The notes under the pieces were generated by a model. That model was not told the origin of the DNA, did no database searches, and was given only the letters and a program-made list of their open reading frames with translations. Source: Heterodontus francisci (Eukaryota). Taken from it: 64,000 nucleotides of DNA. Where the stretch lies: the NCBI RefSeq assembly GCF_036365525.1, contig NC_090387.1, forward strand, positions 76,941,300 to 77,005,299, given 5' to 3'. This document shows positions 8,242 to 62,957 of the stretch, in pieces (the stretch's first letter is position 1; each line of letters begins with the position of its first letter). The translations under genes and the position numbers were made by a program.

Positions 8242-8284
8242 ATGTTAGCGAGTATGGTTTTTCTGTGTCTGAGTATTCACACAG
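8242..8284 (+). CDS. Gene A leader exon ([14 protein letters not shown])
   Basis: ATG, hydrophobic core, phase-1 donor ACAG|gtacca. Confidence 0.75.
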
Positions 8285-11200
8285 GTACCATTGCATTCAT
8301 TGCCCCAGTTACTTTTGATTTATAAAATGCTGCGTTATTAATTTAGCGAACCGTATTTTCTCTATCTAGATTATGTTTTACTGCCTTCTCTCTTCTGCCT
8401 TCATGGTGTATCTGCTATAATTAACCTGTACTTGTTATATTTCTGACAGCTGCTGACCACACTTCGTTCAGTGTGTCTCAAGCGCCCAAAGAAGCGATTG
8501 TATCTACAGGGGGGAACATCACTTTCTATTGTATATTTCCCATCTCTCAGGAACATTCCTGGGTACAGGTATTATGGTGGAAACAGGGTGAGAATGAATA
8601 CTTGCGCAGAAGCGCAGAAGGGAGAAGACGGTTTGGTCTGAAAAGTAAAGCAAGCGGTTACTTTCAGTTACTGAGCGTAAATATCCAAGACTCTGGAGTG
8701 TATCACTGCGCAGTGATCCGTCAGGGAGTACTGCGAGGAAATGGAACTGGATCACATCTAATTGTGCATGGTAAGTGTGAAAATCAGGAGAGCGGGACCG
8801 CCCTAAATATATCGAACATAACACACGGGGATGTTTTGAGACTGTTCTATCGCATCGTTTTTTCTTTGTATAGACATGACTATTAATACATTTCTCCATA
8901 AGTTAAATTATCTATTCGTCTTCTCTGTATTGAACTGCTAATTAAACATTCAATATCACAGGCAGAGTACTGCAAAATGTATCAATCTTAACCAATTGGA
9001 CTGTAATTATAAAGGCAATTTATACAGCAGATGTCTGTCAGTGCACATTGGGAACAAATTCCAAGCATTTAATTGACTGAAAATCGTTTATGTTAATGTG
9101 ACTCAACCAACATGCACACGGCTCTTAGCCCAGTTTTGATGTTCTGTCTACCCCCATCACTGTCTTGGCTGTTTAATATTTCTGAAATGAAGTCTCACAT
9201 AATGATAGCTTTGGGGATTTGAAAGCAATTTTACAGCGAACTGTTGACGAATGGATTCGCTCAGCAAACTCGAGTTGGAAACCTAAAGTTATCAGCTCAC
9301 TAACTTCCAATAAATTAGACTATAGAGAGGGACTATGTTGCTGAAACCTCCTGAGGTCCAACTGTGAGTTGCGAGTTATTCCTACACCGATTAAGCCCTC
9401 CTTTTATCATTAGGGCACTGCCTATCTGTGCATATCAAACACGAAAAGACTTAACGCATCCACTTGCCACCAATGTTAATGGACTTAATTCTTTGTACTA
9501 TGATTAGCATTAAACATTGATTAGCAAATTGTTGCGACTTGTCTGCCATGGAACTCAAAGTCAGGTAAAATTGAACAGATGCCAATCGTTATGAGAGTCA
9601 TAGAGTAGTCGAGTTGTACAGCATAGAAACAGGCCCGTCGGCCCACTGCGTCCATGTCGACCATAATGCCTATCTATACTACTCCGACCTGCCTACATTA
9701 ATTCCATATCCTTTTATGCCTTGTTCATTCAAGTACCTGTCTAGATGCCTCTTAAATGTTGCTACTGTTCCTGCCTCCACAACCTCCTCTGGCAGCTCAT
9801 TCCAGATACCCACTATTCTTTGTCTGAAACTTTTACCTCTTTGATCCCCTTTAAACCTCCTCCCTCTCACCTTAAATCTATGCCCTCTAGTTTTAGTCAC
9901 CGCTACCATGAGAAACAGATTCTGGTTCTCTACCCTACCTATGTCTTTCATAATTTTATATACCTCTATCATGTCCTCTCTCAGCCTCCGTCGCTCCAGG
10001 GAAAACAGAGATAAGGACGAGATATGTTTAGATGATGTGTGCAGCATGAAAAGGACAGGATTGCGACTGCTGCTATTGTGAGAAAACGGGCCGAATGCAA
10101 ATCAGAATCATATTTAATGTCTCACAATGATACACAATAACTTGACTTTGCTCATTCTCATTTCCGCAGTGGCCCCAACCCCACTAAAGATTGTCTCTAG
10201 GACTCCACAAAGGAATACATCTGCGTTTCTCACTCTTGTGTGTGAAACGGCTTCGTTTTATCCGGAAAATTTCACACTCACTTGGTACAAAAATGGCATC
10301 GAAACTGCCTTTGGAATACATACCAATAAAGTACAGAACACTGAGGGACTGTACGAAGTTTCCAGTTCTTTGGTTGAAACGCAATCTGTCCCGAGCGACA
10401 CCAATTATAGCTGCTTGGTATCCCATGTCTCCCTCAGGACTCCAGCTGTTGTCATCCATACTGTTTCTAAGTCCAATCAAGGTAGGAGACCAATAATTCA
10501 AAAAGGAGAATCAGCTACCGTTAAATTGGTAAAGAGATATATCCTACGCTCTGTGCATGTTAATAGTCATGATGATAGTCTACAGAAATCCCATGGGAAA
10601 TATCAAAGAAGATATCACATTCATGTTTATACAATAGAAATAAAGCCGTTGTGTTGTAAAAGCTGGCGCACAGATATTCTCAGTCAAACCTTATTTGCTT
10701 TCAGATTCCTTTAATTGTTATATATATCTAATAAACAAGAGTTTATATTTTCTTTACTATAATATTGCCTTACCTGCATATTATTAATGCCTTTTTAGTT
10801 TCTATACTTCCTATTTTAAACTATTTTATTCTTTACTGTTGCACCAAAACTGTTAATAGGAGCTGCAGTCATGTTGTTTGCACCATGACTTCTTTCAATG
10901 TCGTTCCCGATCCTGCCCAATTTTCGGCTACTTCCAGTGCAGAGCTCTGCAATTAACACTTGCACATAGTTTACTCCTCACCCGTTCACGAAAGGTTTAA
11001 CTGGGATCTGCTTCATAAACTTCATGGAAACTGTGCCCGCGGTACACCGTGAAAGAATAATCAATGAGCCAACGCTTGTTGATCTCCAATTGTATCCTTT
11101 CTTTAGTAAGCACAGTTCAGACAATGAACTGATTTATAATCGATTGTTGTAATCCAGAATTTGTGCGGATAGCGAAGAAACGCATGTGAAAAATCGCCTT

Positions 11201-14200
11201 CAATTTTCTCAAACTATATGTTCATAAATAAGGTGGACAAGAACACGAACACGTCTTTTGGTTATGGAAAACTGATTCTGTTAGCATTCTAAATCTCCTA
11301 AACCGTGTTTAAGATCCTTAAACCGATAATCTGTTTCGCAGATTAATCAGGAATGTGTCATCAATTCGATACAGAAGTTACTTCAAATATTTTGTCTGAA
11401 AAATAACATTTTGCATTTAAACATTCTTTCGGTCGTTCCATACCGCGAGGTTACTGAATGCATCCTATAGCTTAAACAATAAACTTTTAGAAAACGTTTT
11501 TATCCAAAATCCGCCTTAACATTATTTTCCTATTAATCCCGCAGATAGTGTCCATAATTCATTTTCCTTCTGGACTGCAGTGTGTGCGGTGGCTGGATTG
11601 GCGTTTCTCGTGCTGATGATAGTCATTGGGATGCGGTGTCGACTGCAGAATAATGAAAGTATGATCCCCTTCAAAATCTTGGTTTGAGTACAAAACCTCA
11701 GCGTGAGTGACAGTATCCGAGTACACAGCAGAAAAAGAAATCGATTCAGAATTAGAGCCGAAAACTATGGGCCAGTCAGCCTAACATGGGCAAATGCTAG
11801 AGCCCATTATTAAGGAAGAAATAGCTGAACATTTAGAAAAGCTTAATGCAATCAAACAGAGTCAGCATGGTTTTGTGAAAGGGAAATCATGTTTGACAAA
11901 TTTGCTAGATTTCTTTGAGGATATAACAAGTAGAGTTGATAAAGGGGAACTTGTAGATGTGTATTTGAATTTCCAGAAGGCATTCGAACTGGTGTCACTA
12001 AAAGATTATTGCACAAGATAGGAGCTCACAGTATTGAAGGTAATGCATTAACATGGGTTGAGGATTCGTTAACAAACAGAAGACAGAGAATCGGGATTAA
12101 TGGGTTTTTTCAGGTTGGAAACAGGTAACTAGTGGAGTACCACAAGGATCAATCCTAGGACCTCAATTATTTTCTATTTATATTAATGACTTGGAGGAAA
12201 TGGCAGAGTGAAATATATCCAAATTTGCTGACGATACAAAAATAGTTGGGAGGGCATATTGTGATGAGGACATAAGGAATCTACTAGGGGATATACATAG
12301 GTTGAGTGAGTGGGCAAAAACTTGGCAGATGGAGTTTAATGTAGGAAAGCACGAGGTCATGCACTTTGGTAGGAAGATTCAAAAGGCAGACTATTATTTA
12401 AAGAGAGACTTCAAAATAGTGCAGCACATTGGGATCTGGGTGTTCTTGTGCATCAAACACAAAAGGTTAGCATGCAGGTGCAGCAAGTACTTAAGAAGGC
12501 AAATTAAATTTTTGCCTTTATTGCTGGGGGTTGGAGTTTCAAGATAGGGAAATCTTATTAAAACTGTACAAAGTGTTGGTGAGGCCGCACCGAGAGTATT
12601 GTGTACAGTTTTGGTCCCCATATTTAAGAAAGGATATACTGGCATTGGAGGCAGTTCAAAGCAGATTCACTCGGCTGATTCCTGGGATGAAGGAATTGAC
12701 GTATCAAGAACGGCTAAACAGGTTAGGCCTTTATTTGTTAGAGTATGGATGAATGAGGGCTGATCTTATAGAAATGTACAAGATTCTGAGGGGGTTTGAC
12801 AGGATAGATGTTGAGGACATGTTTCCACGAGTGGGGGAATCTCGAGCTAGCGGACATAGTTACAGAATAAAGGGACACTTATTTAAAACTAAGAAGCGAA
12901 GGAATTTATACTCTCAGAGGTAGTTAATGTCTGGAATTTTCTATCCCAGAGACTTGTGGAGGCTAGATCACTGGAAGTATTAAAGAGGAGGGAGATAGAT
13001 TTTTGAAATATCGGGGAGTTGAGGGCTATGACGAGCTGGCACGAAAGAGGAGTTGAGGCCTGAGGCAGATCAATCATGATCTTATTGAATGGCGGGGCAG
13101 GCATGAGGGGCCGAATGGCCCATTCCTGCTCCTATTTCTTATGTTCTTATGTTCTATGTTCTAAAGTTAATAAACAGTATTACTGTTTTCAGGGAGCACC
13201 GACTGTTCCGAATGCGTTTTATAACAGAGGAATGCTCACAGAATCGCAATAAAAATGAAAGCCATCTTCTGGATTTTTTTCCAAAAGAAATTACCCCTTT
13301 GCAACTGGATAAATGAAATGTACCCTGACATACAATCACTTTCCCGTCAGTTCCGTTGTGGATGCGCAATTAGTTCACTCCGGCCGGAGAATGGTTGTAC
13401 ACATAGGAACATAAGAAATAGAAGCAGGAGTATGCCATCTGGCTCCCCACTCCTGCTTCGCGAGACAATAAGATGGCTGTTCTTCTACCTCAAGTGAACT
13501 TTCCCATCGTATTTCTACATCCCTTGATTCCCGTAGTGTCCAAAAGATTCCCTTATTTTCCGAGAAAAATCTCCACCCCCCCACCCCCCCCCCCCCCCCC
13601 CCCACTCCCCCATAACAACAAAAAACACTGCTGATCGCTACAAAGGTTAGGATTTCAAACACTTTCGGCATAATCCGAAATTGAAAACCATATTCAGCTT
13701 TGTTCTGACTCTAGACAATTCTTCGCAATCTCATACATGGAAACTGAGTAAATATTACAATCTTTCAATATCATTAAATTTCTTTCGTTTCCAGGTAAAG
13801 AAGAATGTGACACGGGACCGAACCGCTCTGAGGAACTGGTATGTTCATTCATTGATCCCGGCAGCTTGTTGAAATATCAAGAAAGAACATATCATAATTA
13901 CACCAGAACATTTTACGTTAATTTACTAAAAGCATTTGTCCGATCTCAGTGACTAATCCATATCCCCCCTTGCGTTGCTGATAAAAAAAAAGTTAAATGG
14001 TGAGAAACCAAAACCGCCTATTTCATTGAAAATGTACCAAGGTAACAATTGCTCATAGATTCATCTATTCTTTGAAATTGAAAAGAAACTTTATGTTATA
14101 AAGCTGTCGCCCTTTTAAACATTTCTGCAACACTCTTGTAGCGTGAACATTGACAGGTTTACATATTAGAGTGGCCAGAACGTGATCACTTTTCGCACTT

Positions 14201-14741
14201 TTGTAATTATCAATGAATTAGGGTTTGTGCACTTGATCCCGAGTCCAGGTGAATCTGTGCAATGCCTGATCAGCGCTACGTAAAACTGTTGAAGGCAATG
14301 ATCTAGTCACATAACCAAACATTTTCTTTCCGGCCCGTGCAGGGAGCAACGGCTGAGGTCATGCATTATGCTGCAATCAATTTGAGCAGAACAAGCAAAA
14401 CTCCAAGACATAAACGTGAAGAGGTGAGAACAGTGTTCGCTCAGGTACAGCTGAGTAATAGATCAGAGAAACATAGATCACGAGTCAAATATCAACATAC
14501 ATTAGATAAGGCAGGGTGCATAATTTGTTTCTGTTGACTTTGACCTTGTGCTATACCTAAGTTTATTTGTGTGTGCTTCGAATGGTTGCTTTGAACAGCT
14601 GTCCAAAAAACTTGCAAAACGAGAAATTAACAATATTTCCAAACATTGTCCTTACAGATCCAACGAAGGGGAACCGGTAACGACCTGACGTACGCGACTT
14701 TAGCATTCACAGGCTCAGAAAAAAACGGAGAAATGCAATAA
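8242..14741 (+). CDS. Gene A: inhibitory VJ-C1 IgSF receptor with SIRP-like tail; 7 exons 8242-8284, 8450-8770, 10170-10481, 11545-11658, 13795-13838, 14343-14444, 14658-14741 (339 aa as assembled)
   Basis: All introns GT-AG with compatible phases (1,1,1,1,0,0). Leader, V, C1, uncharged TM, and a tail with MHYAAI and LTYATL. Confidence 0.85.
8450..8770 (+). CDS. Gene A V-set exon with germline-joined J-like G strand
   Basis: VSQAP...ITFYC...VLWWK...DSGVYHC...[11 protein letters not shown]; acceptor ttctgacag, donor G|gtaagt. Confidence 0.95.
9590..10010 (-). mobile_element. CR1 LINE 3' end in gene A intron 2
   Basis: [20 protein letters not shown]...TRGHRFK...[11 protein letters not shown], the CR1 ORF2 C-terminus. 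Confidence 0.9.
10170..10481 (+). CDS. Gene A C1-set exon
   Basis: [21 protein letters not shown]...GLYEVSSSL...[10 protein letters not shown]: canonical C1-set FYP, W and CxVxH motifs; acceptor ttccgcag, donor G|gtagga. Confidence 0.95.
11545..11658 (+). CDS. Gene A transmembrane exon (no charged residue in the TM)
   Basis: [38 protein letters not shown]; acceptor cccgcag, donor A|gtatga. Confidence 0.85.
11750..13160 (+). mobile_element. CR1 LINE 3' half (degraded RT) in gene A intron 4
   Basis: [40 protein letters not shown]; ends in a (TTCTTATG/TTCTATG)n tail. Confidence 0.92.
13795..13838 (+). CDS. Gene A cytoplasmic exon 1 ([15 protein letters not shown])
   Basis: Strong polypyrimidine acceptor tttctttcgtttccag, donor CTG|gtatgt; converts phase 1 to phase 0 as required. 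Confidence 0.7.
14343..14444 (+). CDS. Gene A cytoplasmic exon 2 (ITIM-like MHYAAI; TVFAQ)
   Basis: [34 protein letters not shown]; phase 0-0; alternative donor after 14423. Confidence 0.75.
14658..14741 (+). CDS. Gene A last coding exon (ITIM LTYATL); extends to 14829 if one A is removed from the A7 run
   Basis: [27 protein letters not shown]; acceptor ccttacag. Confidence 0.8.
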   Translation: MQRRGTGNDLTYATLAFTGSEKNGEMQ

Positions 14742-21493: not shown

Positions 21494-24400
21494 TTAATAA
21501 AGTGTTCTCTTACCTTCACTGTAAGTTGTTTTTACATGGTCCACAATAATACCCGTCATTGCAAGTATTATCAAAACACTCAGAGCAAACCGAGCAAGAA
21601 TGAGGAGCCTGATGCTGAACCTATGACCTACAATGTGGATTAAAACAAAATATAAAACGGCTGTACATAAGTATTATCAAGTTGAAGCAACAATGATTGG
21701 TTTATACAGAGGAATTGGCTAGTCTAAATCTTACGCCATATGTATTGATATTAAATCACTTAAATCGGAGTTAACCGTCTGAAAGAAAAAAACTCAAATT
21801 GAGCTCGACAGACTTGGCACTATGGTAACGCCGACGATGGTGCCTTCCACTTCCATAGAGGCGCTGCCGTTTCCAGCTATCACCTATATCTCAGGCAGTA
21901 GTCTTCTTTTCATGCCCAGATGGAGGTTGTATGTGAACATAAGACTCCGATGGCTGCTTTGGATCGAACTGGTGCGCCCTACACTTTCTGTCGAGCTTTA
22001 CTAGCGATAAAGATACAGAGATACTGAACGGGATCGTTCAATTTACTTCTCAGTGGTTAAGCAAAGCAACGGCTTCCCACTGGAACCCGTGAAAATAATT
22101 TGGGTGGGCTGGTGCAACTCGGGTATCCCCACCTCCGCGGTCATGGAGCACCGCCAATTCAGCTTGTTGCCCACCCACCTGTTTCTAGCCTGCCCTGTGA
22201 ACTCTATCAGGAGCTCGATCTTCGATTTCTGACGGCTCTCCCGGACAAGCACATGTGTAGGAAATGCCGTCAGCTCGAGTAGCTTGAGCTCCCGGTTTTT
22301 GGAGCTTGAGCAGCAGCTGGAAACATTGTGGCCCATCCGCGAAGCTGCGAATTTGGCGCATAGCACTTTTTCGATGTGGTCACCCCGCAGCTTAAGCGTA
22401 TGCATGTGGAAAAGGAATGGATGGCCACCAGGCAGTCATGAAGGACCACACAGGTAGTGCCGGAATCGCCTGAATGCATCTCACTCACCAAGCGATATTC
22501 CATTCTGAATACCGGTCAGAGTGATGGTGACTCTGGCGGTGACGGTGGGTGGGGGCGCGGGGGGGAGGGGTGTGGGGGGCGGGGGGGGGGGGGGTGTGGT
22601 AAGAGACTAGGAAGCAGGACCTCAAAAGTAGCAATCTCCAGATTACTCCCTGTTCCACGCATAAGTGAATATTGAAATAGAAAGGTACAGTAGATAAATG
22701 TGTGCCTGGAGAGATGGCCATGAGGAAGGGCTTTAGATTTCTAAGACATTGGGACCGGTTCTGGACGCGTGGGACCTGTACATGCTGAGCAGGTTGCACC
22801 GGAACCTACCAGGAAATGTTTGCTTGCAGGGCGATTTACTAGTGCTACTGACGAGAGTTTAAACAACTTAACAGGCGTGTGGAAAATACCAAGTATTATG
22901 ACAAAGGAAAAACAAGGTGTACCGAGAATTAAGAGAGCAGATAGCACGATAGCAGGAAATAGTTAGGAAATAGGTGGGGTCAAAGTAAGAGGGAATGTCA
23001 TAAGTTCTAAATTAGGTTTACCGTGCCAGCATGTGACTGCACGGACTGTGATAAATAAGGTTAGTAAGCTGCAGGCACAGATAGCCAAATGGACATATCT
23101 TGTTATGACAATAACAGAGATCTAGCTCAAAAAACGAGAGCAGTGGATAATAAATATTCATGGATACAAGGTGCTTAGGAAAGACAGAGAAGGAAAGGAA
23201 AGAGGAGGGGTAGCAATACTGATTAAGGAGAATATTACGGTGTTGGAGAGAGAGCATGCCCCAGAGTAAATAAGGACAAAATCTATATAGTTAGAGCTAA
23301 GAAACAAGGGCAGTACCATTCCAGTATTGGGTGTTTCCATAGGCCACCAACTAGCGGGAAAGATATAAAGGACCAAATTCGCAAGGCAATTACAGAGAGG
23401 TGCAAGAATTATAGAGTAGTTATAATGGGGGACTTTAATTAATTTTCTATAGTCACAACTGGATAAGGCAAGACTGCAGATGTAAGATCTGTTCCATTGG
23501 TTGTAGGATTGCTTAGACCTGTTTATCACATGCTGCTTCTGCTGTTTGGCATGCAGGTAGTCCTGTCTTATAGCTTCACCAGGCTGACACTTCATTTTAG
23601 GTATGCCTGGTGCTGCTCCTGGCATGCCCTCCTACACTAGTCATAGAATCAGGGTTGGTCCCCGAGCTTGATGGTAACGGTGGAATGGGGGATATGCCAG
23701 GCCATGATGCTAAAGGTTGTGGTCGAATACAATTCTGTTGCTGCTGATGGCCCACTGTGCCTCATTGAGGTATTAGGTGCCAGATTTGTTCGAACTCTCT
23801 CCCATTTAGCATGGTGGTAGTGGCACACTACCACCTCGAGGCAGCCAACATCCCCAAGTTATACACACTACTGAGCCTGCGGCGCTTGAGATGGCTTGGC
23901 CATGTGAGCCGCATGGAAAATGTCAGGATCCTCAAGGACCTATTGTACAGTGAACTCATCACTGGTATCAGACCCACCGGCCGTCCATGCCTCCGCTTTA
24001 AAGACGTCTGCAAGCGCGACATGAAATCCTGTGACATTGACCACAAGTGGTGGGAGTCAGTTGCCAAAGGAGAAGAAGAAGGGACTGGCACACAACATGT
24101 GGGACAAAGATAGCAGTCATTTCGACAAAGTTGGATCTATTAAGTAAAGCCAACACGGATTTATTAAGGACAAATAGTGTTTAACAAAAGTGATCAGTTT
24201 TCTTTTTTTTTGACAAGAATAAGCAAGACTAAAATAAAAGCAAAATACTGCGGATGCTGGAAATCTGAAATAAAAACAAGAAATGCTGGAACCACTCAGC
24301 AGGTCTGGTAGCATCTGTGGAAGGAGAAGCAGAGTTAACGTTTCGGGTCAGTGACCCTTCTTCGAAGTTCCGAAGAAGGGTCACTGAACCGAAACGTTAA

Positions 24401-27400
24401 CTCTGCTTCTCTTTCCACAGATGCTGCCAGACCTGTTGAGTGGTTCCAGCATTTCTTGTGTACATTATATAAGCAAGACTAAAACATTGGTTCATCCTCA
24501 GCTAGAGTATTGTGCTCATTTCTAGACAGCACACTTTCAGGGGGATGGAGTGTATTAGAGAGAGGGCAGCAAAGATTCACGAAATGGTTCCAGTGATGAG
24601 GAATTTCAGCAACATGGATAGATTGGCGAAGTTCTCTTTGGAGGAGACAAGATTAGAGGAGATTTGATAGAGGCATTCAAAATCATTAGGGTTCTGGACT
24701 GGGAAGAAAATCCTCCCATTGGTGGAAGAATCGAGAACCAGAGGACACCAGTTTACGGCGATTGGCAAAAGAAGCAACGGCAACATGAAGAAAAACGTTT
24801 TTACACCGGGAGTGATTAGGATCTGGAATGCCCTGCATGACAATGTGGTGGTAGCAGATTCAATTGAGGCCTTTAAGAGAGAATTGGATAATTATTTGAT
24901 CAGAAATATTTTTCTGTATTATGAGGAAAAGGCAGGGGACTGAGAATAGATGAGTTGCTGCTGCAGAGGGCCGCACGGGCATAACGAACTGAATGGCCTC
25001 CTTGTGTGTTATAACAATTTTAGGATTCAGTGATCCCACTCAAGTCGCCTAAATTTGATTCTCTTAATGGAAAACTAGCTCTCACCAGCACAGGGACTAA
25101 GTGGCAAATTGTCTTCATCTGCACAATAATTGCCATCATTCCTTGAATCTACTTTAGCAACTACAGTGGTTAAAATGTGTTCCGAACGTTTCTTGAGCCC
25201 TTATTTATTAGCCTGTGGACTCCAGATCCATGGTGGCAAACAGAGCGGATTTAGAAACAATTCGGCATGCCTCGCCACTTTACAATAAATAGAGCGCAGA
25301 GGTTGATGAAGGAAATGCTAGGAAGAGTTCATTTATATTTTTGCAAAAGTTCTACATGTGAAGCAAATTCAGGCTGACGTCATTCTGGTTGATTTTGACA
25401 AATGGTATGTCGGCCAGTCTCTCTTTGAGGATCAGTAGAATTCTAGCAGAGCTCTATCCGATTCAATTTAGGATCAATGCAGTCGAGACTGTTGATGTAC
25501 TATATAGAGGTGTCGCCTCTAGCAATAGCCGTAAATGTGCTAATACCATCAAATAGGGACAGAAGAGCACGAGATTAATAATATTCAAGGAAATCTGAGT
25601 ATTCGAGGAAATGCTCCTGCGCGATGTTCAGGGTGGCACAGTGGCGCAGTAGTTAGCACCGCAGCCTCACAGCTCCAGCGACCCGCGTTTAGTTCTGGGT
25701 ACTGTCTGTGCGGAGTTTGCAAGTTCTCCCTGTGATCGCGTGGGTTTCCTCCCACAGCCAAAGACTTGCAGGTTGATTTGTAAATTGGCCATTGTAAATT
25801 GCCCCTAGTGCAGGTAGGTGGTAGGGAATATGGGGTTAATGTAGGGTTAGTATAAATGGGTGGTTGTTGGTCGGCACAGACGTGGTGGGCTGAAGGGCCT
25901 GTTTCCGTGCTGTATCTCTAAATAAAAAGTAAAATAAAAATATGTTGGCGGTAGTTCCACGCTGCACATGCCCCAATCTTACCTTTCTGAACAATGTAGC
26001 TGACATTGGCGGGCACCAGAAGAGAGACATGATATACCAGGCAGGTATAAACAACTCCGCTAGGGACAGGTTGTGCTTCTTCCAAAAAACTGGAAACCTC
26101 ATATAGTCCCTCTGCGCTCCAGCTTTTCACAGTTTCTACTCCGGTCAAAATTTCGACACCGTCCCTTCGCCAGGAGGTTACTAACTGCTCCGGATAAAAG
26201 GCAGCTGTTTTACACTCGAGTTTCAGAGAAGTAGTTGAAATCCCTTCAACAGGAACGATTTCCAGCGGGGTGGGGGGAACTTAGAAAGAAATATATATAC
26301 AGGCAATTTTGTGTTCACTATAAAGAATCCCATCCTCATTTGCTTATGCTTGTTATGATGTTAAAGTCCTACTATCACATTAGTTACCCGTTAAAAAAAA
26401 ACTTTGTGTTTCATTTGTTTGATAAATCGTTTCACGGCGCAGAGCAAAATTGCAAATGACACACAAAAAGAATGATGCTCAGAGCTGGTAATATGCAGGG
26501 CGGCAATCGTCACTGTTCTGAATGGAAATATCAGATCCTGAAGCGGTATTGGTTTTGGCAGCAGTTGTTCCGTGTGAGAATTCCGTCCGAATTTATCGGA
26601 CAGGTCTGTACGGAACAGTGGAATCCTCTCTTGTTATTCAATAACAACCTTTGATGTATTAAACATTTTGCGTGTGTTTTCTTTTCAAATTTGGGTGTCT
26701 TTCGTATATCGCATGTGCTATAAACATTTAACGGTGAACAATGAGATGAAATTTGTTGCTAATATTTGCATTATATATCGAAATATTTTTATGTCTACAT
26801 ATGCTGCAGACAGAATGCTGTTATATGATTAGATCGAATCCGTTCACTAAAATTTACTACACAACATATTGATGTTTGTGGTGGAAATTTTAGATCGTGT
26901 AGCTTTCACGTAAGGAATTTTCTCCGGAGTGGGAATCGAATCTTGGAGATTTTTCAGATCATGTCGTTAATTATGGATTGCGGCGTAAATCACAACCTCC
27001 ATACAGATGAGGAAAAGCGAAAGTTAAATCATAACTCAGAATGCATGCCTTATATAATCTCTGAGTTTTTGCCTCTTCCAAGTCCATTCTGGCTTTTCTT
27101 TTTTCGTTCATGGGATGTGAGCGCCAGCATTTATTATCTGTTCCGAATTGCCCTTGGTCTGTTGAAAACCTTTTGCCTGCCGAAGATTCGGCTTATATAG
27201 AACATAGAACATTACAGCGCAGTACAGGCCCTTCGGCCCTCGATGTTGCGCCGACCTGTGAAACCATCTGACCTACACTATTCCATTTTTATCCATATGT
27301 CTATCTAATGACCACTTAAATGCCCTTAAAGTTGGCGAGTCTACTACCGTTGCAGGCAGAGCGTTCCACGCCCCTACTACTCTCTGAGTAAAGAAACTAC

Positions 27401-30316
27401 CTCTGACATCTGTCCTATATCTATCACCCCTCAACTTAAAGCTATGTCCCTTCGTGTTTGCCATCACAATCCGAGGAAAAAGACTCTCACTATCCACCCT
27501 ATCTAACCCTCTTATATCTTATATGTCTCTATTAAGTCACCTCTCCTCCTTCTCTCTAACGAAAACAAAGAACAAAGAAAATTACAGCACAGGAACAGAC
27601 CCTTCGGCCCTCCAAGCCTGCGCCGATCCAGATCCTCTATCTAAACATGTCGCCTATTTTCTAAGGGTCTGTATCTCTTTGCTTCCTGCCCATTCATGTA
27701 TCTGTCTAGATACATCTTAAAAGACGCTATCGTGCCCGCGTCTACCACCTCCGCTGGCAACGCGTTCCAGGCACCCACCACCCTCTGCGTAAAGAACTTT
27801 CCATGCATATCCCCCCTAAACTTTTCCCCTCTCACTTTGAACTCGTGACCCCTAGTAATTGAATCCCCCACTCTGGGAAAAAGCTTCTTGCTATCCACCC
27901 TGTCTATATATCTCATGATTTTGTACACCTCAATCAGGTCCCCCCTCAACCTCCGTCTTTCTAATGAAAATAATCCTAATCTGCTCAACCTCTCTTCATA
28001 GCTAGCGCCCTCCATACCAGGCAACATCCTGGTGAACCTCCTCTGCACCCTCTCCAAAGCATCTACATCCTTTTGGTAATGTGGCGACCAGAACTGCACG
28101 CAGTATTCCAAATGTGGCCGAACCAAAGTCTTATACAACTGTAACATGACCTGCCAACCCTTGTACTCAATACCCTCAAAACAACCTCAAGTCCCTCAGC
28201 CTTTCCTCGTAAGACCTTCCCTCCATACCAGGCAACATCCTAGTAAATCTCCTCTGCACCCTTTCCAAAGCTTCCGCATTCTTCCTATGAATATGAATCC
28301 TACAATCGTCTTTTACTCAAATGAATATGTGTCTGCTCAATCTATATTCACCGTTTAGCTTGAAGTAGAGCAAATTATGGCATTGCAATGTTTTGTTTTT
28401 AACAGTTCATGACAATTTCCTTAATATATTTCCTCTAGATTTTTGCTTACCGAATTTGTAGTAATAGCAAGATGTTAAATTAATGGCATTATTATTTAGA
28501 AAAATATTAAGACCTTTATTCTCAGCAGCATCCTATTAACGGTCAAACAAAGCTCAAAATTCCTCCTTTCTTTTATCCTGGATTTTTTTTTAGCTAGAAT
28601 ATATAGCGTGCTAGAATTTCCGTGGAGTAGAGGAGGGCGGTGTTCTCCTACTCTTCTACCATAACGCCAGTCTGCGATTGTTGGAGTGTATATGTAAATC
28701 GTGAATTGGAAAGTTCAGTGATATCCTCCCTACATTTAACATGCTGTGAGAGTATAACCGAAAGTCCAATTGGCAGATTAACAGAGGTCCAAATAGGTGC
28801 ATTGGGTTCCTATACTCTCCTGCAAGCTCAAGGAATTGGGATGGAACCTGGCAATGAAGCTAAAATCAACACCACACCGCTCAGTAGATTGTAAGATTTC
28901 TTTGTAAACTGAGATTAGCAGCCTCAAACAAGATCTCGCTGGACACAAGTGCACAGCTTAAATATGGAGATAGGAAGAAGAATAGGCCACTCAGCCCCTC
29001 GACCCTGTCCCGTCATTCAGTTAGATCATGGTTGATTTTTACCTCAAATCCATTTGTCCACTATCCGTTGGTAAGCCAACCTAACAAAAATATATTCACC
29101 TTAAGCTTGGAAATGCTATGTGTCCCACCTTCCACAGCGTTCTTTGGGAGAGAGTTCCAAATGTTGGATAATACTGCAGATAAAAATATTAGGCTGGCAA
29201 GTTCAAGCAGTTAGGCCAATCATTTCCTATTGTATAAAATATCCAGGTTGTAGCAGGACGCTGTTCTTCTGAACTTATAATTAAGGCACCTTGTTGGGGT
29301 GGAATAGATAGCCTTTAATGTGAAATAGAAGACTTGATCTTGAGGTTTTAAAATTATTTCTATTGTCACTCCTTGGCACCGTTATTTTGGTGAGAAGGTG
29401 TCTGGCCATCTAATTTGATTAATTAATTTGAAGCTAAGATTTAAACATTTATACTATTTGGGAAACATGTCTTTGTAACAATTGCAACTGTACTTCAAAA
29501 AGAACTCATCGGATGTAAAGTATTTTTGAATGTCATGACGACAATCTGGTGGATGAAATTGGTCTCGGGCAAAAGCCCAAATCGGATATTAATGAATCCG
29601 TGGCCGTTGCACACCGGAATCAACGGAAAAGAAAATCCAGAGAAGTGTAGAACGAATTTTCTATCACCAATTTTTCGTCCAGCGATAAAAGTTCAAATTA
29701 CGTATATCACACACAGCTGAAAAACACCCACTCCCCGGTACAATGACACTTACCATACACAGTAATCTGGGAGCCACTTCCATTTCCAGCAAAGTTTTGT
29801 GAATATCTTACTTTACAGTAATATACTCCGGAGTCTGCGACACTCGCATTTAGGACATGAAACGAACCACTTCCCTTTGCCACATTAAATCGCTTTCTGC
29901 TGTCTGGTTCTAGAAACGAATCATTGCCGCGTCTCCACCAATAAATATCAGGAGCATCTTGAAATATGGGAAATATGCAGAACATGGAAACATTTGCACC
30001 TCTGGCCACTTTCAAGAATTTAGGGAATTGATCCACTTTGCTTGAAGTTACTTCAGCGGCTATCATAAAATGAAAAGAATGATGATATAGTGTGCATATT
30101 TTATAGAAAGAACAAATATTAGAACTTAGAATTTTAAAACATCACTAAATTGATAACGTAACTTCAAAGACGGAAGAAAGAAATGTTCACAAAACCTGAG
30201 GAACTTTGATAACATCAGCTTTTTATCGATAAGCGTGGAACTGCAAGATAAACAAACACACCTTTGCAAAAAATTCCCAGAAAAAATATACACGAAATCC
30301 AGGAGTTGACCATCAT
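21494..30316 (-). CDS. Gene B: activating-type VJ-C1 IgSF receptor; exons 30316-30262, 30059-29754, 26279-25983, 21627-21514 (then an unidentified small exon, or read-through to the stop ending at 21494)
   Basis: All four exons are open and in phase 1 with GT-AG boundaries; TM contains Arg; short tail. Confidence 0.82.
21514..21627 (-). CDS. Gene B transmembrane exon with intramembrane Arg
   Basis: GHRFSIRLLILARFALSVLIILAMTGIIVDHVKTTYSE; paralogous to 62851-62957; acceptor cacattgtag, donor G|gtaaga. Confidence 0.85.
22190..23450 (+). mobile_element. Degraded CR1 LINE (ORF1 remnant and endonuclease) in gene B intron 3
   Basis: CRKCRQLE and SRTSKVAISRLLPVP match ORF1 at 320-1267; GGGVAILIKE-type endonuclease remnant. 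Confidence 0.8.
23460..23825 (-). mobile_element. LINE fragment of the same family as 45630-47450
   Basis: Shared sequence GCATGCAGGTAGTCCTGT...GCTTCACCA with 47400-47445. Confidence 0.6.
23828..24070 (+). mobile_element. RTE-clade LINE 3' fragment
   Basis: RRLRWLGHVSRM...KDLLYSEL...RPTGRPCLRFKDVCKRDMK, the typical RTE ORF C-terminus. Confidence 0.85.
24100..25020 (+). mobile_element. CR1 3' fragment interrupted by a Penelope palindrome
   Basis: QHGFIKDK, SRTRGHQF and IRIWNAL motifs. Confidence 0.75.
24235..24468. mobile_element. Palindromic Penelope pseudo-LTR insertion with 16-bp target-site duplication (TSD)
   Basis: Inverted arms centred near 24365; ATAAGCAAGACTAAAA at 24219-24234 and 24469-24484. 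Confidence 0.85.
25632..25940 (+). mobile_element. HE1/V-SINE-like SINE just past the gene B C1 exon
   Basis: Same head, core and tail as 15583-15880. Confidence 0.85.
25983..26279 (-). CDS. Gene B C1-set exon
   Basis: VPPTPLEIVP...LKLECKTAAFYPEQLVTSWRRDG...GLYEVSSFL...YTCLVYHVSL; donor G|gtaaga. Confidence 0.93.
27197..28290 (-). mobile_element. Two nested CR1 3' ends in gene B intron 2
   Basis: Younger copy (about 27569-28177; [15 protein letters not shown]...) splits an older CR1 3' end; AAAACAA at 27562-27568 and 28178-28184. Confidence 0.88.
29754..30059 (-). CDS. Gene B VJ exon
   Basis: KVDQFP...VSMFC...IYWWR...DSGVYYCKVRYSQNFAGNGSGSQITVY; donor G|gtaagt. Confidence 0.95.
30262..30316 (-). 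CDS. Gene B leader exon (MMVNSWISCIFFLGIFCK)
   Basis: 55-nt exon, same length as the gene D leader; donor AAAG|gtgtgt. Confidence 0.75.
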
Positions 30317-31684
30317 TCTCAGTGAGGAACATTAAACTAGCCAGCGACTACAGGAAATCAAAAAGCTCCTGGACCTCTGGAAGCCACGGGTTTGCATTTG
30401 ATCTAGAGTTACGTGTACTGTCACGTGCTAATTGTACACTTTCAAATAATGGATTTCCTTTGTTAAACCAGATCACTGAGGCATAACTTTCAGCAAGGAT
30501 TGTGATATGATCCAACTAGGCCATAACTGAAAGCAAACAGGAAGGGACATTTTTTCCCGAAATTAATTCTGTCGATTGTTGGAATATGTTTCTTAAACAA
30601 GTACTATAGTCAATTGCTTTTGAATGATGATCAGCCTGGTAAGTCTGGAGGAATGGGATGAGATGTTTCCGGTTATCGGGTGGCGGCGACATCCGAATCA
30701 CAGGGAAAGTTTCGCAATGCTCGTTAATTTTAGACAGGTCCGAATGCATTCTAAAAGATAATCCTGTACGAGAGATGGGGGCCTGACCAATATTGTGAGC
30801 GGAGTGTAGTTCACACTTATGATTAACTGCAGTTACTTAAAAGATCAATGACACTTAAGGATGTTGTAGTTATATGGGTAACTCACATTTGTCAAACCTG
30901 CGCAATTTTTGTAACTTACGTATCTTTGTAACTTGGCTCCTTCCAGATTGCACTTCATTCTGGGTGCAAACGAGGAGGAAACTGGCTGTGTATGCTCAAT
31001 GCTTATTCTTATGACTATAAAGCACCGTTTATTGTGTTGCTTGATTTCATTTCGCTGATGCCACCAATACACCCTGATCAGTTGAAACAGCCCTCCTGCC
31101 TGCGCATTGAATGCAGTTGCACAATTATGACTAACAGTCGAACTGTTATGTTAATGAGCTTAAATTCATGCTTAAATGCAACGACCCACATTCTTCTGGA
31201 AGTAGTAAGAGTGTGTTTATCTGATCAATGTTTGTGCAAATGTAACAAATGCTTAACTTCCGACGTGATGGGAAACTGTTGGATAAACTGACCGGTCCAC
31301 CGCATACCTATCAATCTTATTAATCTATTTCCTATGAATGTTGGAACTAGCAAGTGAGAAAAAAAAGAATGAAAGAGGAACCACCCACCGTGTCAGTTTA
31401 TGAGCGTTGTATAGAATCCCCTCATCCTGTTGCCTGATCATAGTGCCCAGATCCACCTGAATTCACAGACGCTGGCCTCGTGGCTTCCGGTATAGGATGC
31501 CAGTGTCTATCATAGTCTATGGGTATCCCATTGACGTTGCCTTCTGATCAAATACCCCATTGCAAACTTATTTGATGCGTGTATGTACGGTGAACATCCA
31601 TGTTGCCATTTATCCCATTCACTATGTATCTGTATTGTTGCAGGTTGTATGGCTACTTTCCATGTCCGGTTCGTTTATTTTGCT

Positions 31685-45560: not shown

Positions 45561-45629
45561 AATGGTCCTCTTAACTTGTGAGTTGGGATCCATATAGAAT
45601 CGTACATAGTAGCCAGTTTAAATTGTTTC

Positions 45630-55200: not shown

Positions 55201-56750
55201 GCAAACCCCGGGGTTCGAAAGCCCACGAGCTTGGTGATTCCTTGCAGCATACGCCAAGTGTGTCGCTCAGAATGGCGGTGAATCCTTGGTGTTGCACATA
55301 TTTTTGTTGGGTATTTTTTACAGAGATGTTTGTGTTTATCTTACAGCTCCATACTATGGAAAACATCTACTGTTAAAAAAAATCTCTTTTTTGAACATTT
55401 TTTTTCATTGTGTCGTTAATTCTTTTAATTTTCTTTATTTTTAATATCTAAGTTCTAATATGTGTTCTTGTTCTATAAAGTATACACATTACATCAGCAT
55501 TCTTATTTATTTTCTGGTAGTCGTTGAAGTGATTTCAAGCAAAGTGGATCGATGTCCTAAACACTTGAGGGTTGCCAGTGGTGCAAATTTTTCCAACTTC
55601 TGCACCCAATCTTTATTGGAGATTCGACGAGGAAAGGTTTCTAGAGCCAGACATCAGAAAGTGCGTTAATGTGTAAAAGGGACGTCTTCACTTTACGTTC
55701 TGAATGCGAGTGCTGCCGGCATTACTGGAGTGCATTACTGTAAAGTAAAACATCATCAAAAATCTATTGAGATGGAACTAGCTTCCAGATTCTGTGTACG
55801 GTAAGTGTCATTGCAATGGGGAGTGGGAGATTTACAGCTGTGGGCAACATATGTAATCTGATCTTTAATCGCTTTTAAACGAAAACTGGTGATAGCAAAT
55901 TTGTTCTACACATATCAGGGTTTTCTTTTCCATTGACCCTGGAGTACAACGGCTGCCGATTCGCTATCGCCCATTTTGCGCTACTACCCAAAATCAATTT
56001 CACTCGATTCACTAGTCTCACGACATTCCAACGTGTATTTGATTCAGCGAATGCGTTTTGAAGTTCAGTTACAATTATTTTGGAGGCAAGATACCGAATT
56101 AGTATAAACGTTTAAAGCTTGGCTTGGAATTAATAAATGGGATTAGGTGGCCAAGTAGTTTCTCACCAAAATACCAGTGCTAAAGGGCGACAATCGACAG
56201 AATTTAACATCTCCTTGGACAGGGGCTAAATGACCTACTCTTGTTCCTATGCCCACAGTATATGTTTCATACTTGTGCCAATAATAACGTTTTTGAGACG
56301 CTAAACTCATTTCACAAAAGGTTTGCTGTAACCTATCGAGAGGGGATGTATTGATCTTACTTCAATGCTGGATTCCACCCAAGTCCTAGGAGGGAAGGTA
56401 CTCAATTATCCTGTTTGAAGCTCTGCTGTATGCCAATTCGACTTTTTTATACACTCACAACCCGTTAAGTACTGGCAGGATTTCACCGAAGCATTCTATA
56501 AACGCCTGGGCTCACATATTTGTAATTTACGATTCTCATTTACAATCCACCAACCCGCCGCGGAAGTTGCCGCAAGAGATCAAGTGAACATAGCCTCCCA
56601 CCTCCTCTGCGAAAATCCTGCCGCATTTCAAATTCTGCCGAATATAGTAGATACGTGGAAAAAGAATGTAAGAATACTGAGCTTTGTTGGACAACCACAC
56701 AATAAAGGCTAACATAATGTCCAACTTAATAGGCCACAGATTTAACAATT
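52230..56750 (+). repeat. Inverted segmental duplicate of the gene B upstream region, leader, V exon and part of intron 2 (about 33350 to 28500)
   Basis: Collinear diverged matches, e.g. 52231-52350 to the reverse complement of 33230-33350, 53220-53260 to 32300-32335, and 55180-55215 to 30385-30420. Confidence 0.85.
55272..55800 (+). pseudogene. Gene C: leader plus VJ pseudogene, no C1 or TM exon found
   Basis: Leader (55272 to about 55325) has a 1-nt deletion and a GT>AT donor loss; V exon 55521-55800 is 280 nt versus 303-306, with an internal deletion and frameshifts; homology stops inside intron 2. Confidence 0.88.
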
Positions 56751-57313: not shown

Positions 57314-57327
57314 GCTTCTGATATTTA

Positions 57328-58475: not shown

Positions 58476-58530
58476 ATGTCGGTGAGAGCTACAGTTCAGT
58501 GCATGGTTGTTCTCGGCATGGTTTGGCCAG
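58476..58530 (+). CDS. Gene D leader exon (MSVRATVQCMVVLGMVWP)
   Basis: ATG in AAGATGT context, hydrophobic core, donor CCAG|gtatta. Confidence 0.75.
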
Positions 58531-61500
58531 GTATTATACTTGTTATATGCTGCCATTTCAGAATACTTAAGTCCTAGTTTAGAAGATTGTACAACTTTTA
58601 TACAGTTCAAAATTAAAAATTGCACTTCAACAATTCCATTACTGGTGCTTCTTAATTGTTCTTATATTATGTTTCTCTTAGTTATTTTTCATTATCTGAT
58701 GTATGCAACTGTAACCACCGTTCTTGTTTTTTTCCCCCTAATAGCCGCTAAAGTAACTTCGAACAAAGTGGATCAGTTCCCTAAATTCTTGAAGGTTGTC
58801 AGAGGTGCGAGTGTTTCCATGCGCTGTACATTTCCGCTATTTCAAGATACTCCCGATGTTTATTGGTGGAAACGCGGCGAGGAATCGTTTCTGGAACCAG
58901 ACAGCAGAAAGCGATTTAATGTAAAAAAAGGAAGTAGTTCATTTGGTGTTCTGAATGCGAGTGTTGCAGACTCCGGAATGTATTACTGTAAAGTAAAACA
59001 TCAAGAATCTATTGGAGATGGAAGTGGCTCTCAGCTTACTGTGTACGGTAAGTATCACTGTAGCGGGACTAGAAGATTCTCAGCTGCGTGCGATATATGT
59101 AATTTGTTCTTTTATCACTGGACGAAAACCTACAGGTAGCGAATTCGTTTTAACCATCTCCGAATTTTCATTTCCATTGACCCCGGTGTAAAACGGCCGG
59201 TTATTCGCTATCGCCCGTTTTGCACTACTGCACAAGACCAATTTCACTCAGTCGTTGGCCTCATAACATTCCTAAGTTATTTTCATCGAATGCACGCTTT
59301 TGAAGTGCACTTACAATTGTTCGTTGAGTCAAGATACTTAAAAAGTATAACTGTTTAAACCTTAGTTTGAAATTAGTCAATGAGGTACGATGGCCAGGTT
59401 CCTTCTCACCAAAATAACTGTGTCAAGGTGGACAATGGTAATAATTTAAACACCTCCTAGGTCAAGCCTTTTATTCAACATTAAAGACCATATACCCTGG
59501 TGCTTTGATTATAAACTCAGATGAACACTTTCTTACTACAGCCCTGAATATTTCACACACTAGCTAATTTTCCGCCTCACTGTTTGAAATTACAAATCTA
59601 ATACTTTCTGTAACGAATTGCCAGAAATTTCAGGTGGGTAGATTTTTGTTTTGAATGGGTATGAAGGGAATGGAATTAAGTGGGACAAATGGAGTTGAGG
59701 AACAGAATCTAAATGAATGGCAGAGCAAGCTCGAGGGACTGAATGGTCTACTCCTGATCCTATTTCAGCAATTTATGCTGTGCACTTGTGTCCATCGATA
59801 ACTTACTTGAGATACCAAACTCTTTTCATAAATGAAGCCTAAAACCCATTGGAAGGGGAAGCGTTGATCTTGCCTTCAATGCTGGATTCCACCTCAAGTC
59901 CTCTAGCTTGCAGGACAGTGAAGGTACCCAATTCCGGTGTTTGAACCTCTGTTCTACGCCAATTGTACTTTCTTGTATACACTCACAACCCGCCAAGTAT
60001 TGGCAGGATATCACAGAATATCTCTATAAACGCCTGGGCTCCCATATTTGTAATTCATGATTTCCATTTACAATCCTCCACAGCCGGGGGAAGTTACAGC
60101 AAGATATCAAGAGAACACAGCCCTCCATTTTCTCCACGGAAATCCTGCCACATTATGTATTATAACTAAAGCAGATCCATGGTTGTAAATGCAGGAATTC
60201 TGAGCCTTTGTTGAGCTGTCCACACGGTGCTTAAGGGAATAAACTCAGCATAATGTTGTCAGTTAATAACGTCCTTAATTTAATATTTTGCTATTACTGT
60301 AACGTCGGAAAAGTCAACGTGGAAAGAAAAAAAATGCAAAGGAGATTGTTTGTAATAAACTGGCAAAACAATGCAAACCTATTAGAGGGCTTTTACTTCC
60401 AGTTAAATAGTGACTGTATATCGAACGGACATAGGTTCGGCATTAGTAAATAGTAGACGTAGGAATGATATAAGCACAACCTCCTCCAGGCAAAAAGTGT
60501 TCAACAGAACGAATGGACCCGGGGAAGGGCAAAATCCCTGAAATTATGTAAGACATGCATTTTGTGTTAGGATTCCCCATTCTGTTTCCCTTAGGTGTAC
60601 AGCTGTTGTGATATTCACAAAGATATAAAATTACCAGTAAAACCCTTTCACGACGTGAAAACGAGTCCAGTCCTTAGATCCCCCTCTGCAGAAAATTCCT
60701 TAGGTGAAAGCTGAAATCTCCCCCACGGACACTTGAAATGTTGTATAATCAATTGTAATGCACGAATTCTAATCTCTATATATAACAATATCCTGTCATA
60801 AACATGGATATTTGAAAATGAAACATGGAAAATTAGAATGTGCTCCTTTAAATTAAAAACATTTTTCCTCTCTCTCCATTAAAGTTCCCCCGACCCCCCT
60901 GAAAATCGTTCCGATTGAAAGAATTTCAGCGACTACTCTGAAACTTGAGTGTAAAACGGCTGCCTTTTACCCGGAGCATTTAGGAATTTCCTGGTTAAGA
61001 GATGGTGTCGAAATTCTGAGCGGAATAGAAACTGTGAAAAACAAGAGCGCGGAGGGACTTTATGAGGTTTCCAGTTTTTTGGAAGAAGTCCAAACAGCCC
61101 CGGAAAAAGTTGTTTACACCTGTCTGGCATCTCATATCTCTCTTCTGGTACCTGCCAGTGTCAGCTATATCGTCAATCAAGGTACGATTGGGGCAGATTC
61201 TGTGTGGAACTTTAGCGACCATCTTTCAAAGTTCTGATGAAAGGTCGCAGAGCTGAAATGTTAACTCTGCTTCTCTCTCCACAGATGCTGCTTGACCTGC
61301 TTAGTATTTCCAACATTTTCTGTTTTTATTTTATCTTTCAAGGGTATCTCCTCGATGATCCGGATTTCTTTCAACATTATTAAACTGTTCCTGCTCGATC
61401 CATGCATCGACGCCATCAGCACATCTCGGCCTATTAGTAGAAGTGACATCTTCATAAAGTTAATCAATAGACTAGAGAGCATTGAATCGAAAATGAACCG

Positions 61501-62957
61501 GGTAGAATTCTGTCTACAACGCGACTGCCCCCCACCCCCACCCCATCCCGCCCCCAGCCAGAGCTGTGTCCATTTATCATTTTCCATTTCTCCATGAATG
61601 GCATAATCCTGAATTTGTTTCAAAAGCTTCGCATGCAGACCCGTTGCAAATACCTTCTAATACCTGCATTTACTTCATTCAGTGAATGCCTTCTCTCCGT
61701 AAGTTGCTGTAAATTGGTGGCGCATGACAAATTGTTTCTAAATCTAATCTGGGGCGAGTTATGGTATTGGACCCTTTGCACCAACAAGTAACAATTCAAG
61801 AAAAGTCCAAAATAGTTATTATCACTGTAGATGTAAAATTAAGGAATGGTGGAAATTACTATGCAAGAGGAGACAATTTGGCACTTGGTCCTTGTGTTTG
61901 TGAGAACGATTCTCCCATAATGGGAGTCAACTCAGGCTACTCGCGTGGAAATCAGGAATATTAACGTCAATACGTCGTCCCGTTACAGTTTGCAGTGCCG
62001 CCGAGACAGCCTGATCGGCATGAAGCTAAATCTGTGATCAAGGAGCGGCGGGGGTGGGTGCCAAGGTTGTAATGTCTCAGGTTATGGGCACTTCTGCTTT
62101 TCCTACCCACCCAAAAACATTTTAGAAGTTACCTACTCAGGTAATATTCTATCACTACTGCTAATAAAACTAGCCAGAGAATGCAGGGCACCCCAGTTCT
62201 AACATAAAATGGATATAGGGATCATATGTTCATCTCAGAACCACAACCTGGACAAACGATAAGCATGCTATTTGAAAATAAATCTCCAGCCTCCAGCAGC
62301 AGGCTTTTTCCCAAGGTGGAAGACATGATGGTAGACGCTGACATGGCGCTCAGTCTGCCGAGTAGATTGTGGCGCTATTATAGCACCTTTAATGCGATTT
62401 TGGCAATTTAAAATCGAACCCTATGATTTAAACTAACTATTCAATGAACCCCTTTCATCTGTATAAGCCAATCACAATTGCTTCTATTCTATAATTGTTA
62501 AATACAGCAAGATTACTTCTTTATTTTAATCCTACATTGCAGGTCGCAGTTTCAGCTTTGTGATTGCTGACTTATTCTGTTTTTTTTTATAATTCTTGCA
62601 TTGACGGCCCTCTGTGGAAATGGAAGACGCCATAGTCGGCGCTAACAAAGTGCTAAGTCTGTCCAGCTCAATTTGAGGCTATTATGAGACGGTTAACGCC
62701 GATCTAACCAATTTCGTTTTAATTCCTTTGAAGTAGGTTTTAAACTAGCGATTTAATGGACCTCATTCCTCTGTATCAAACAATAATTGTTTCAATTTAA
62801 TAATATTTATGTACAACCGTTTTATATCTTGGTTTTAATTCACATTGCAGATCATGGTTTCAGCATCATGTTTGCTCGGCTAGTTCTGAGTTTTTTGATA
62901 AGTCTTGCACTGATGGGTATTATTGTGGACCATGTACAAATAACGTCAATAACGTAA
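58476..62957 (+). CDS. Gene D: activating-type VJ-C1 IgSF receptor; exons 58476-58530, 58745-59047, 60885-61181, 62851-62957 (253 aa if the TM exon reads to its stop)
   Basis: Phase-1 GT-AG exons, all open; TM contains Arg; tail about 8 aa. Confidence 0.85.
58745..59047 (+). CDS. Gene D VJ exon
   Basis: KVDQFP...VSMRC...VYWWK...DSGMYYCKVKHQESIGDGSGSQLTVY; donor G|gtaagt. Confidence 0.95.
60885..61181 (+). CDS. Gene D C1-set exon
   Basis: VPPTPLKIVP...LKLECKTAAFYPEHLGISWLRDG...YTCLASHISL; donor G|gtacga. Confidence 0.93.
61228..61335 (+). mobile_element. Penelope pseudo-LTR fragment
   Basis: GTTCTGATGAAAGGTC...TGAAATGTTAACTCTGCTTCTCTCTCCACAGATGCTG. Confidence 0.75.
62543..62605 (+). pseudogene. 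Partial, frameshifted duplicate of the gene D TM exon
   Basis: Acceptor tacattgcag retained; aligns to 62851-62915 with a 1-nt loss at the Arg codon; reads GRSFSFVIADLFCFFL* (stop 62590-62592). Confidence 0.7.
62851..62957 (+). CDS. Gene D transmembrane exon with intramembrane Arg
   Basis: DHGFSIMFARLVLSFLISLALMGIIVDHVQITSIT*; acceptor cacattgcag; a gtaaga donor overlaps the stop codon. Confidence 0.85.

Follow-up and report, generated by a model that had tools for sequence, protein, structure and literature searches.

The exon at positions 8450..8770 of the window (the whole 64-kb stretch of Heterodontus francisci DNA that was analysed) is a germline, non-rearranging VJ-type exon, which lies beside a C1 exon. 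Gene A, to which this exon belongs, probably (at roughly 70%) encodes a germline-fixed, spliced membrane protein, which would serve, like SIRP-alpha, on the inhibitory side of a system of paired innate receptors. This reading is based on the observed exon structure, unrearranged splicing, family size, chromosomal location and two tail classes, and draws on SIRP, NITR and LRC biology for the presumed ligand, partners and cell type. The family, about 45 V-C1 genes of cartilaginous fish, is likely to consist of paired inhibitory and activating receptors working like SIRP, NITR or PRARP, because genes B and D of the window carry an activating-type Arg transmembrane segment.

Gene A consists of seven exons on the forward strand (+). 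The coding part of the leader exon (8242..8284; P0009) ends in a phase-1 donor, whose splice joint was found in the X1 contig only. The VJ-type exon is 321 nt long, is bordered by ag on the 5′ side and by G/gtaagt on the 3′ side with phase 1 at both ends, and was identified as V-set by Pfam (E 1.8e-7). Its F-strand Cys is followed by nine residues, then by a J-like GNGTGS strand, which includes an N-G-T sequon, and then by the gtaagt donor. Downstream lie the C1-set exon (10170..10481; Pfam C1-set, E 4.9e-11), the transmembrane exon (11545..11658) encoding a helix without a charged residue, and three tail exons: cytoplasmic exon 1 (13795..13838), cytoplasmic exon 2 (14343..14423) with the ITIM-like motif MHYAAI, and the last coding exon (14658..14741) with the ITIM-like motif LTYATL, which the contigs cover without a gap. 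In the X1 and X2 contigs the V, C1, transmembrane and tail exons are spliced together, and all joints, including the one between V and C1, are of the GT..AG type. The V exon had 0 differences from these contigs, which lose rare variants and represent one sample. The RNA status of the runs X1, X2 and X3 was guessed, and X3 did not cover the gene A exons. A Heterodontus francisci database protein identical across the V exon carries the automatic label CD276 antigen homolog.

The initial annotation omitted the transmembrane and cytoplasmic exons, and it is these exons that decide the interpretation: gene A combines an uncharged transmembrane segment with a tail bearing two ITIM-like motifs. An A7 run at 14719-14725 leads to an early end of the frame. 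Two further Tyr motifs follow out of frame, up to position 14829, and both are present in the relative P0011. Because the contigs agree with the sequence of the A7 run, this shortening of the inhibitory tail is probably genuine.

FGxGTxLxV is the J motif. According to the initial annotation, the intact V exons A, B and D each end in a GxG-type J-like strand and a phase-1 donor, with no recombination signal sequences (RSSs) or separate J segments nearby; the first statement proved correct, including the motifs quoted for B and D, and the second was borne out by an RSS scan with CAC fixed and spacers of 12 or 23. In the window 0, 1, 7 and 37 sites were found with at most 2, 3, 4 and 5 mismatches, respectively, versus 0.1, 0.67, 6.2 and 30.9 expected from 30 first-order Markov simulations, which is nothing beyond chance. 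No free J segment was found in the window: the two matches to [FW]GxG[TS], near 43.1-43.4 kb, are both in unrelated frames. Of the 30 parsed family loci, 29 had no RSS in the 70 nt that follow the F-strand Cys, or none with fewer than 6 mismatches. Of 30 V-set loci of this genome that served as controls, 26 gave an RSS with 0-4 mismatches in the same scan, and the other four are joined exons. A genome-wide search for perfect 23-RSSs gave 246 sites (control pattern: 10), and among the matches listed (100 of the 246, spanning C5 to C407) none was on C17, the contig carrying the family.

IgH and TCR-type segments are on contig C34, kappa-type segments on C8 and joined IgL genes on C23. Behind TCR-like V segments of C34 there is a tandem array of perfect 23-RSSs with a spacing of ~62-63 bp (G000:C34:10434784-10435509), at least 8 of them in one 730-bp stretch, and similar sites occur at 5.47, 7.80, 8.58 and 8.67 Mb.

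Gene B is on the reverse strand (-). It comprises a predicted leader exon (30262..30316), a VJ-type exon ending in GNGSGSQITV (29754..30059; sequence and Pfam), a C1-set exon (25983..26279; Pfam) and a predicted transmembrane exon (21514..21627). Gene D, on the forward strand (+), has the same arrangement: a predicted leader exon (58476..58530), a VJ-type exon ending in GDGSGSQLTV (58745..59047; sequence and Pfam), a C1-set exon (60885..61181; Pfam) and a predicted transmembrane exon (62851..62953) with a short tail. In both predicted transmembrane segments an Asp follows the Arg 17 residues later, which suggests the activating type. FcR-gamma-coupled transmembrane segments are described, in PMC6557307, as having an Arg within an NxxR motif and acidic residues at the C-end. 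The predicted B and D segments contain the Arg and the Asp and lack the Asn of this motif; the complete motif was found in the relative P0157. Gene C is represented by a broken V exon (55521..55800, +) with an in-frame deletion, frameshifts and a stop, and no C1 exon was found between it and gene D.

Genes B, C and D arose by an inverted segmental duplication (29183-33351 versus 52228-59607), with 65-76% identity that includes the upstream DNA. Interspersed repeats occupy 320-1291, 9600-10010, 11760-13200, 27640-28190, 35000-36700 and 44700-45650; they include LINE-type fragments, SINE-like copies and one transposase-like open frame (~44.7-45.6 kb), which to our eye resembles a Harbinger-type transposase.

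With the gene A V exon as query, 45 genome matches were obtained, all on C17 (all 77 candidates scored); for the C1 exon there were at least 44, again all on C17 (150 of 398 candidates scored). On this contig the family forms groups near 71, 76-77, 88-91 and 92.5 Mb. Relatives of the same layout are present in sharks, rays and Callorhinchus, a few of them with V-V-C1 or V-C1-C1 models. Their automatic names are best-hit labels, because they range from SIRP-alpha-like and SIRP-beta-like to IgL-like, tapasin-like, B7H6-like and CD276-like. For tail classing, 99 stored family proteins were picked by pattern, isoforms included, and 98 of them were classed: 46 had ITIM-like tails, in which repeated TYAxL/TEYAxL motifs are conserved, 9 had an Arg transmembrane segment, 22 fell into neither class and 21 had no transmembrane segment. 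In the nine Arg proteins (five clusters at 90%) an acidic residue stands 17 positions after the Arg.

A paralogue 177 kb upstream of gene A has a V exon that is 98-99% identical, with 67-80% identity in the leader, C1 and transmembrane regions. This pattern suggests gene conversion of the exon that presumably binds the ligand. Comparison of pN/pS among close V paralogues did not reveal a clear excess, with too few changes to tell. The FG loop, counted from the Cys to the exon end, is nearly fixed at 19-21 residues across the family.

The V-C1 intron of the paralogue 177 kb upstream (L084:1841-2309; G000:C17 ~76.773 Mb) contains an older tandem copy of the 3′ end of the V exon. The orphan J-like piece at this locus starts in the FG loop and has a donor. 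The possibility that it is a free J segment was considered and dropped: it stands at the start of a 470-nt tandem duplicate of exon end plus intron, and no RSS was seen upstream by eye. The tandem copy is likely to be a side effect of the homogenisation of the V exon.

The V domains of the family are short, with a Cys-Cys spacing of 54-60 (27 rows), whereas it is 65-75 in Ig, TCR and UrIg domains, and the predicted model (pLDDT 92) has no C′/C″ strands. The position of the J Phe/Trp is occupied by Asn in 24 of 30 family exons, always within an N-G-[ST] sequon, and by Phe or Trp in none of the 30. A glycan at this position would be likely to hinder Ig-type V-V pairing. In the C1 domain the E-F Trp is present in 1 of 15 family sequences, versus 21 of 24 Ig/TCR/UrIg and 0 of 9 MHC or B7H6-like sequences. 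Two structural checks had been proposed in the initial annotation, of which one gave an answer: the G strand of the predicted model is interrupted exactly at G98-T99-G100, which is consistent with a β-bulge, whereas homodimer prediction for the V-C1 ectodomain gave a score of 0.00, which counts neither for nor against V-V pairing.

A single-exon G strand of the GxG type is also common in other V-set genes of this genome, including NKp30-like ones. Teleost NITRs, too, were earlier put forward as primordial substrates on the same ground, so the J-like GxG motif alone is not rare. Two joined VJ exons, L050 and L061 (G000:C13 ~120.3-120.4 Mb), group with the Ig/TCR part of the tree; they end in KVWGDISGNGT and have neither the J Phe nor an RSS. 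Beside a long IgL-cluster array (G000:C46 ~14.9-15.0 Mb) there is a tandem of three single-exon VJ genes (L070, L071 and L105), whose ends are of the FGNGS type and which we presume may be CD8-like.

In phylogenetic trees the family formed its own V clade (99/99*) and its own C1 clade (100/99*), nested in nothing. In the free V tree UrIg and UrIg2 clustered with Ig/TCR (86/88), and the family clustered with B7H6-like, NKp30-like and turtle domains (96/77, unstarred). The rows P0045, P0188 and P0195 are missing from the V tree, the second V tree was thinned by 23 rows, and P0150, L106, P0185 and P0151 are missing from the C1 tree. Control labels (TCR, IgH, IgL, B7H6-like, nectin, CD300-like) derive from motif reading, except for L064 and for P0111, which is UrIg2 (E 1.3e-142).

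If gene A is an inhibitory paired receptor, its germline V domain would bind, in monomeric form, a ligand of cell-surface or microbial origin, and the phosphorylated ITIMs would recruit SHP-type phosphatases to dampen the response. The Arg transmembrane members B and D may couple to an ITAM adaptor, e.g. FcR-gamma or CD3-zeta, and thereby activate. Diversity would come from duplication, from loss (as in gene C) and from V-exon gene conversion, and not from RAG. The J-like strand may be an ancient trait of V domains of the VJ type, retained in the family but without the Phe/Trp that serves in V-V pairing.

It is possible, though we consider it doubtful, that the genes are orthologues of a named family, SIRP, PRARP or a divergent subtype of nurse-shark NCR3, so that only the copy number in sharks would be new. 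Such orthology does not conflict with the paired-receptor mechanism. Relatives are often named SIRP-alpha-like or SIRP-beta-like by automatic annotation, but these names are too mixed to be more than best-hit labels. In the ESM Atlas the best feature matches of P0011 were SIRP-alpha clusters (0.97, 215 of 256 features). In a PDB sequence search with the same protein, UrIg2 (E 3.6e-15), IgH chains and SIRP-alpha (3.4e-14) scored alike, and a PDB profile search was dominated by multi-domain proteins. The model of the V domain alone had as neighbours an unnamed V+C1 cluster, then NCR3-like domains (TM 0.84), CTLA4-like domains and PD-1. Foldseek placed VNAR, TCR, NKp30 and PD-1 at TM ~0.65-0.8 without discrimination, and VIA Z scores were near ties among many V/I domains (NCAM2 14.3, VNAR 14.2, CD79b 13.8, NKp30 13.1).

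A search of 1.84 billion representatives gave 20 named proteins among the best 150. Sixteen of these are single-V or V-C1 types (14 come from cartilaginous fish; the other 2 are multi-V proteins of turtles and have no C1), and no SIRP was among the 16; the remaining named proteins were three UrIg2-like ones, P0071 having come from a separate search. A supplement on the elephant shark contained no SIRP match, and no NKp30 match either, so that its listing may be incomplete. In the turtle multi-VJ receptors P0172, P0144 and P0070 the V domains are short (Cys-Cys 60-63), and either the tail is ITIM-like or the transmembrane segment is of the Arg...Glu type. These receptors are the nearest named matches outside the sharks and possibly tetrapod counterparts. 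The PMC10751288 supplement lists a reedfish cluster on chr12 (7.5-12.5 Mb) whose automatic names are mixed in the same way, from SIRP-alpha-like to tapasin-related and B7H6-like, which favours orthology with a named family and is a lead for a bony-fish counterpart.

SIRP resembles the family in its non-rearranging VJ-type V plus C1 and in its two kinds of member, inhibitory ones whose Tyr motifs are repeated and activating ones whose transmembrane segment is charged. SIRP alpha, beta1 and gamma have two C1 domains, however, and activating SIRP uses Lys, whereas the family has one C1, an Arg...Asp transmembrane segment and a shorter V. NSFL1C, a SEP-domain gene, is presumably a neighbour of human SIRP. 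Orthology with SIRP is therefore unsupported by location, since the SEP-domain (NSFL1C-type) genes are on C16 and C5 and none is on C17 (one marker). PRARP reportedly has a joined VJ, a C1 in non-avian species, a transmembrane segment and an ITIM/ITSM tail, and gene A, compared with it by description only, shares this VJ-C1-TM-ITIM layout. By the same description PRARP is said to comprise one or two genes in MHC-related regions, unlike the ~45 genes of the family, which include activating members and lie on a CBFB-bearing chromosome. NKp30/NCR3 shares the single-exon VJ with a GxG strand and the Arg transmembrane segment of activating members, but to our knowledge it has no C1. The NKp30-like exons of this genome (L064; E 2.5e-12 with PDB NCR3) have a Cys-Cys spacing of 70, form a separate clade and lie on C29, the MHC contig, and no NCR3 was among the best 60 PDB matches of the gene A V domain. 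The view of the initial annotation that the exons are closer to SIRP/NKp30-type domains than to germline-joined IgL was upheld by the separate clade and by the F-G-x-G motif, which 4 of 4 joined IgL exons keep and none of the 30 family exons has.

Teleost NITRs are, according to PMC7916673, diversified non-rearranging VJ-type activating and inhibitory receptors under birth-and-death evolution, and were once proposed as primordial substrates on the ground of their J-like motif. The family resembles them in this respect and differs in the C1 nature of its second domain and in lacking FGxG. The second domain of NITRs is I-set, and many NITRs keep FGxG.

It is unlikely that the family descends from a sister of the VJ-C1 gene invaded by RAG, in a lineage that survived, later left the proto-MHC and gained ITIM or Arg transmembrane signalling. 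A VJ exon, one C1 and a transmembrane segment do make up the layout of a TCR chain, and VJ-C1 genes have been proposed as remnants of the precursor in passages of PMC10751288 and PMC12227049. The family must also be old, because it is present in both holocephalans and elasmobranchs. Approximately unbiased (AU) tests, on ~97 columns, did not reject grouping it with all Ig/TCR/UrIg V domains (p 0.167), with joined IgL V (p 0.097) or with IgL C (p 0.323). With the p of 0.167, the family may be distantly related to Ig/TCR.

UrIg and UrIg2, also elasmobranch genes with a non-rearranging single-exon VJ followed by C1, are named in PMC12227049 as the best RAG-substrate candidates by layout, synteny and structure. 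There they are described with 3-11 C1 domains, as disulfide-linked dimers and as MHC- or Ig/TCR-linked, whereas the family has one C1 exon between V and the transmembrane segment. UrIg also differs in its Cys-Cys spacing of 74-75 and in C domains with the E-F Trp. Grouping of the family with UrIg/UrIg2 V was borderline rejected (p 0.0496), and the placement of UrIg/UrIg2 with Ig/TCR in the free tree, the short Cys-Cys spacing and the C1 without E-F Trp likewise argue against a sister lineage.

So does the location. All 64 MHC class I matches are on C29 or on small contigs and none on C17, and the UrIg-like gene L106 (identified by motif reading) is also on C29. A translocated MHC block, sought through PSMB10 on C17, was not found, as 0 of 28 proteasome matches (28 being a lower bound) are there. 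C17 carries CBFB at 72.1 Mb (a single marker). We take the block of CBFB, nod2, sall1, fto, irx and ctcf to be that of human 16q, which is not an MHC paralogue. In reedfish nod2, sall1, fto, irx and ctcf are the neighbours of CBFB, as listed in the PMC10751288 supplement. The initial annotation had put forward a VJ exon beside C1 as the proposed substrate of the RAG transposon insertion; with the short V, the missing E-F Trp, the ITIM and Arg transmembrane tails and a locus outside both the MHC contig and the Ig/TCR contig, the genes are not supported as a special candidate, and the RAG-substrate reading of the family is weak. Its members are probably distant cousins, and not ancestors, of antibodies. 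It is distinctly improbable that an undescribed family more than 400 million years old, with ~45 VJ-C1 paired receptors, constitutes the main diversified NK/myeloid system of cartilaginous fish and at the same time the surviving sister of the Ig/TCR precursor gene, with a TCR-chain layout and V-exon conversion instead of RAG.

We consider it very improbable that the proteins are B7H6- or tapasin-like ligands or adhesion molecules and not signalling receptors. V-C1-TM is also the layout of B7H6, the C1 lacks the E-F Trp as in B7H6-like and MHC domains, and neither signature of signalling is present in 22 of the 98 proteins; however, B7H6-like V and C1 domains branch apart from the family, 46 of 98 proteins have the repeated Tyr-motif tails, and the G strand is J-like. 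That the genes are once-rearranged, germline-joined IgL/TCR genes with later signalling tails is hardly credible and largely refuted: such joined IgL/IgH exons exist in this genome (L034, L067-L069, L063, L083) and likewise unite V and J in one germline exon without an RSS, some relatives are named IgL-like and an IgL sister position was not rejected, but joined IgL genes have Cys-Cys spacings of 69-72 and no transmembrane segment or tail and lie on another chromosome, whereas the family has no F/W-G-x-G, a short C-D region and a nearly fixed FG loop, and its V and C1 domains do not nest in IgL/TCR clades, the phylogenetic check proposed by the initial annotation.

VJ and VJ-C1 genes that do not rearrange form an established class, and better RAG-substrate candidates have been published; NKp30, PRARP, UrIg and tetrapod VJ-C1 genes are named as non-rearranging VJ kinds in PMC10751288. 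A description of the cluster was not found by a full-text literature search, whose scope did not include the shark NCR3, PRARP, primordial-immune-complex and innate-receptor review papers. The family may be partly in print, since the papers of greatest relevance lay outside this search. The possible novelty lies in the family as such, a large cluster of paired activating and inhibitory receptors common to sharks, rays and chimaera that goes under at least five inconsistent automatic names. It is real and well supported, and it is probably under-described. Its members are candidates for NK/myeloid checkpoint receptors of sharks, the family would trace the pairing of Arg transmembrane segments and ITIMs in VJ-C1 receptors back to the early jawed vertebrates, and it is worth including in trees of antigen-receptor origins.
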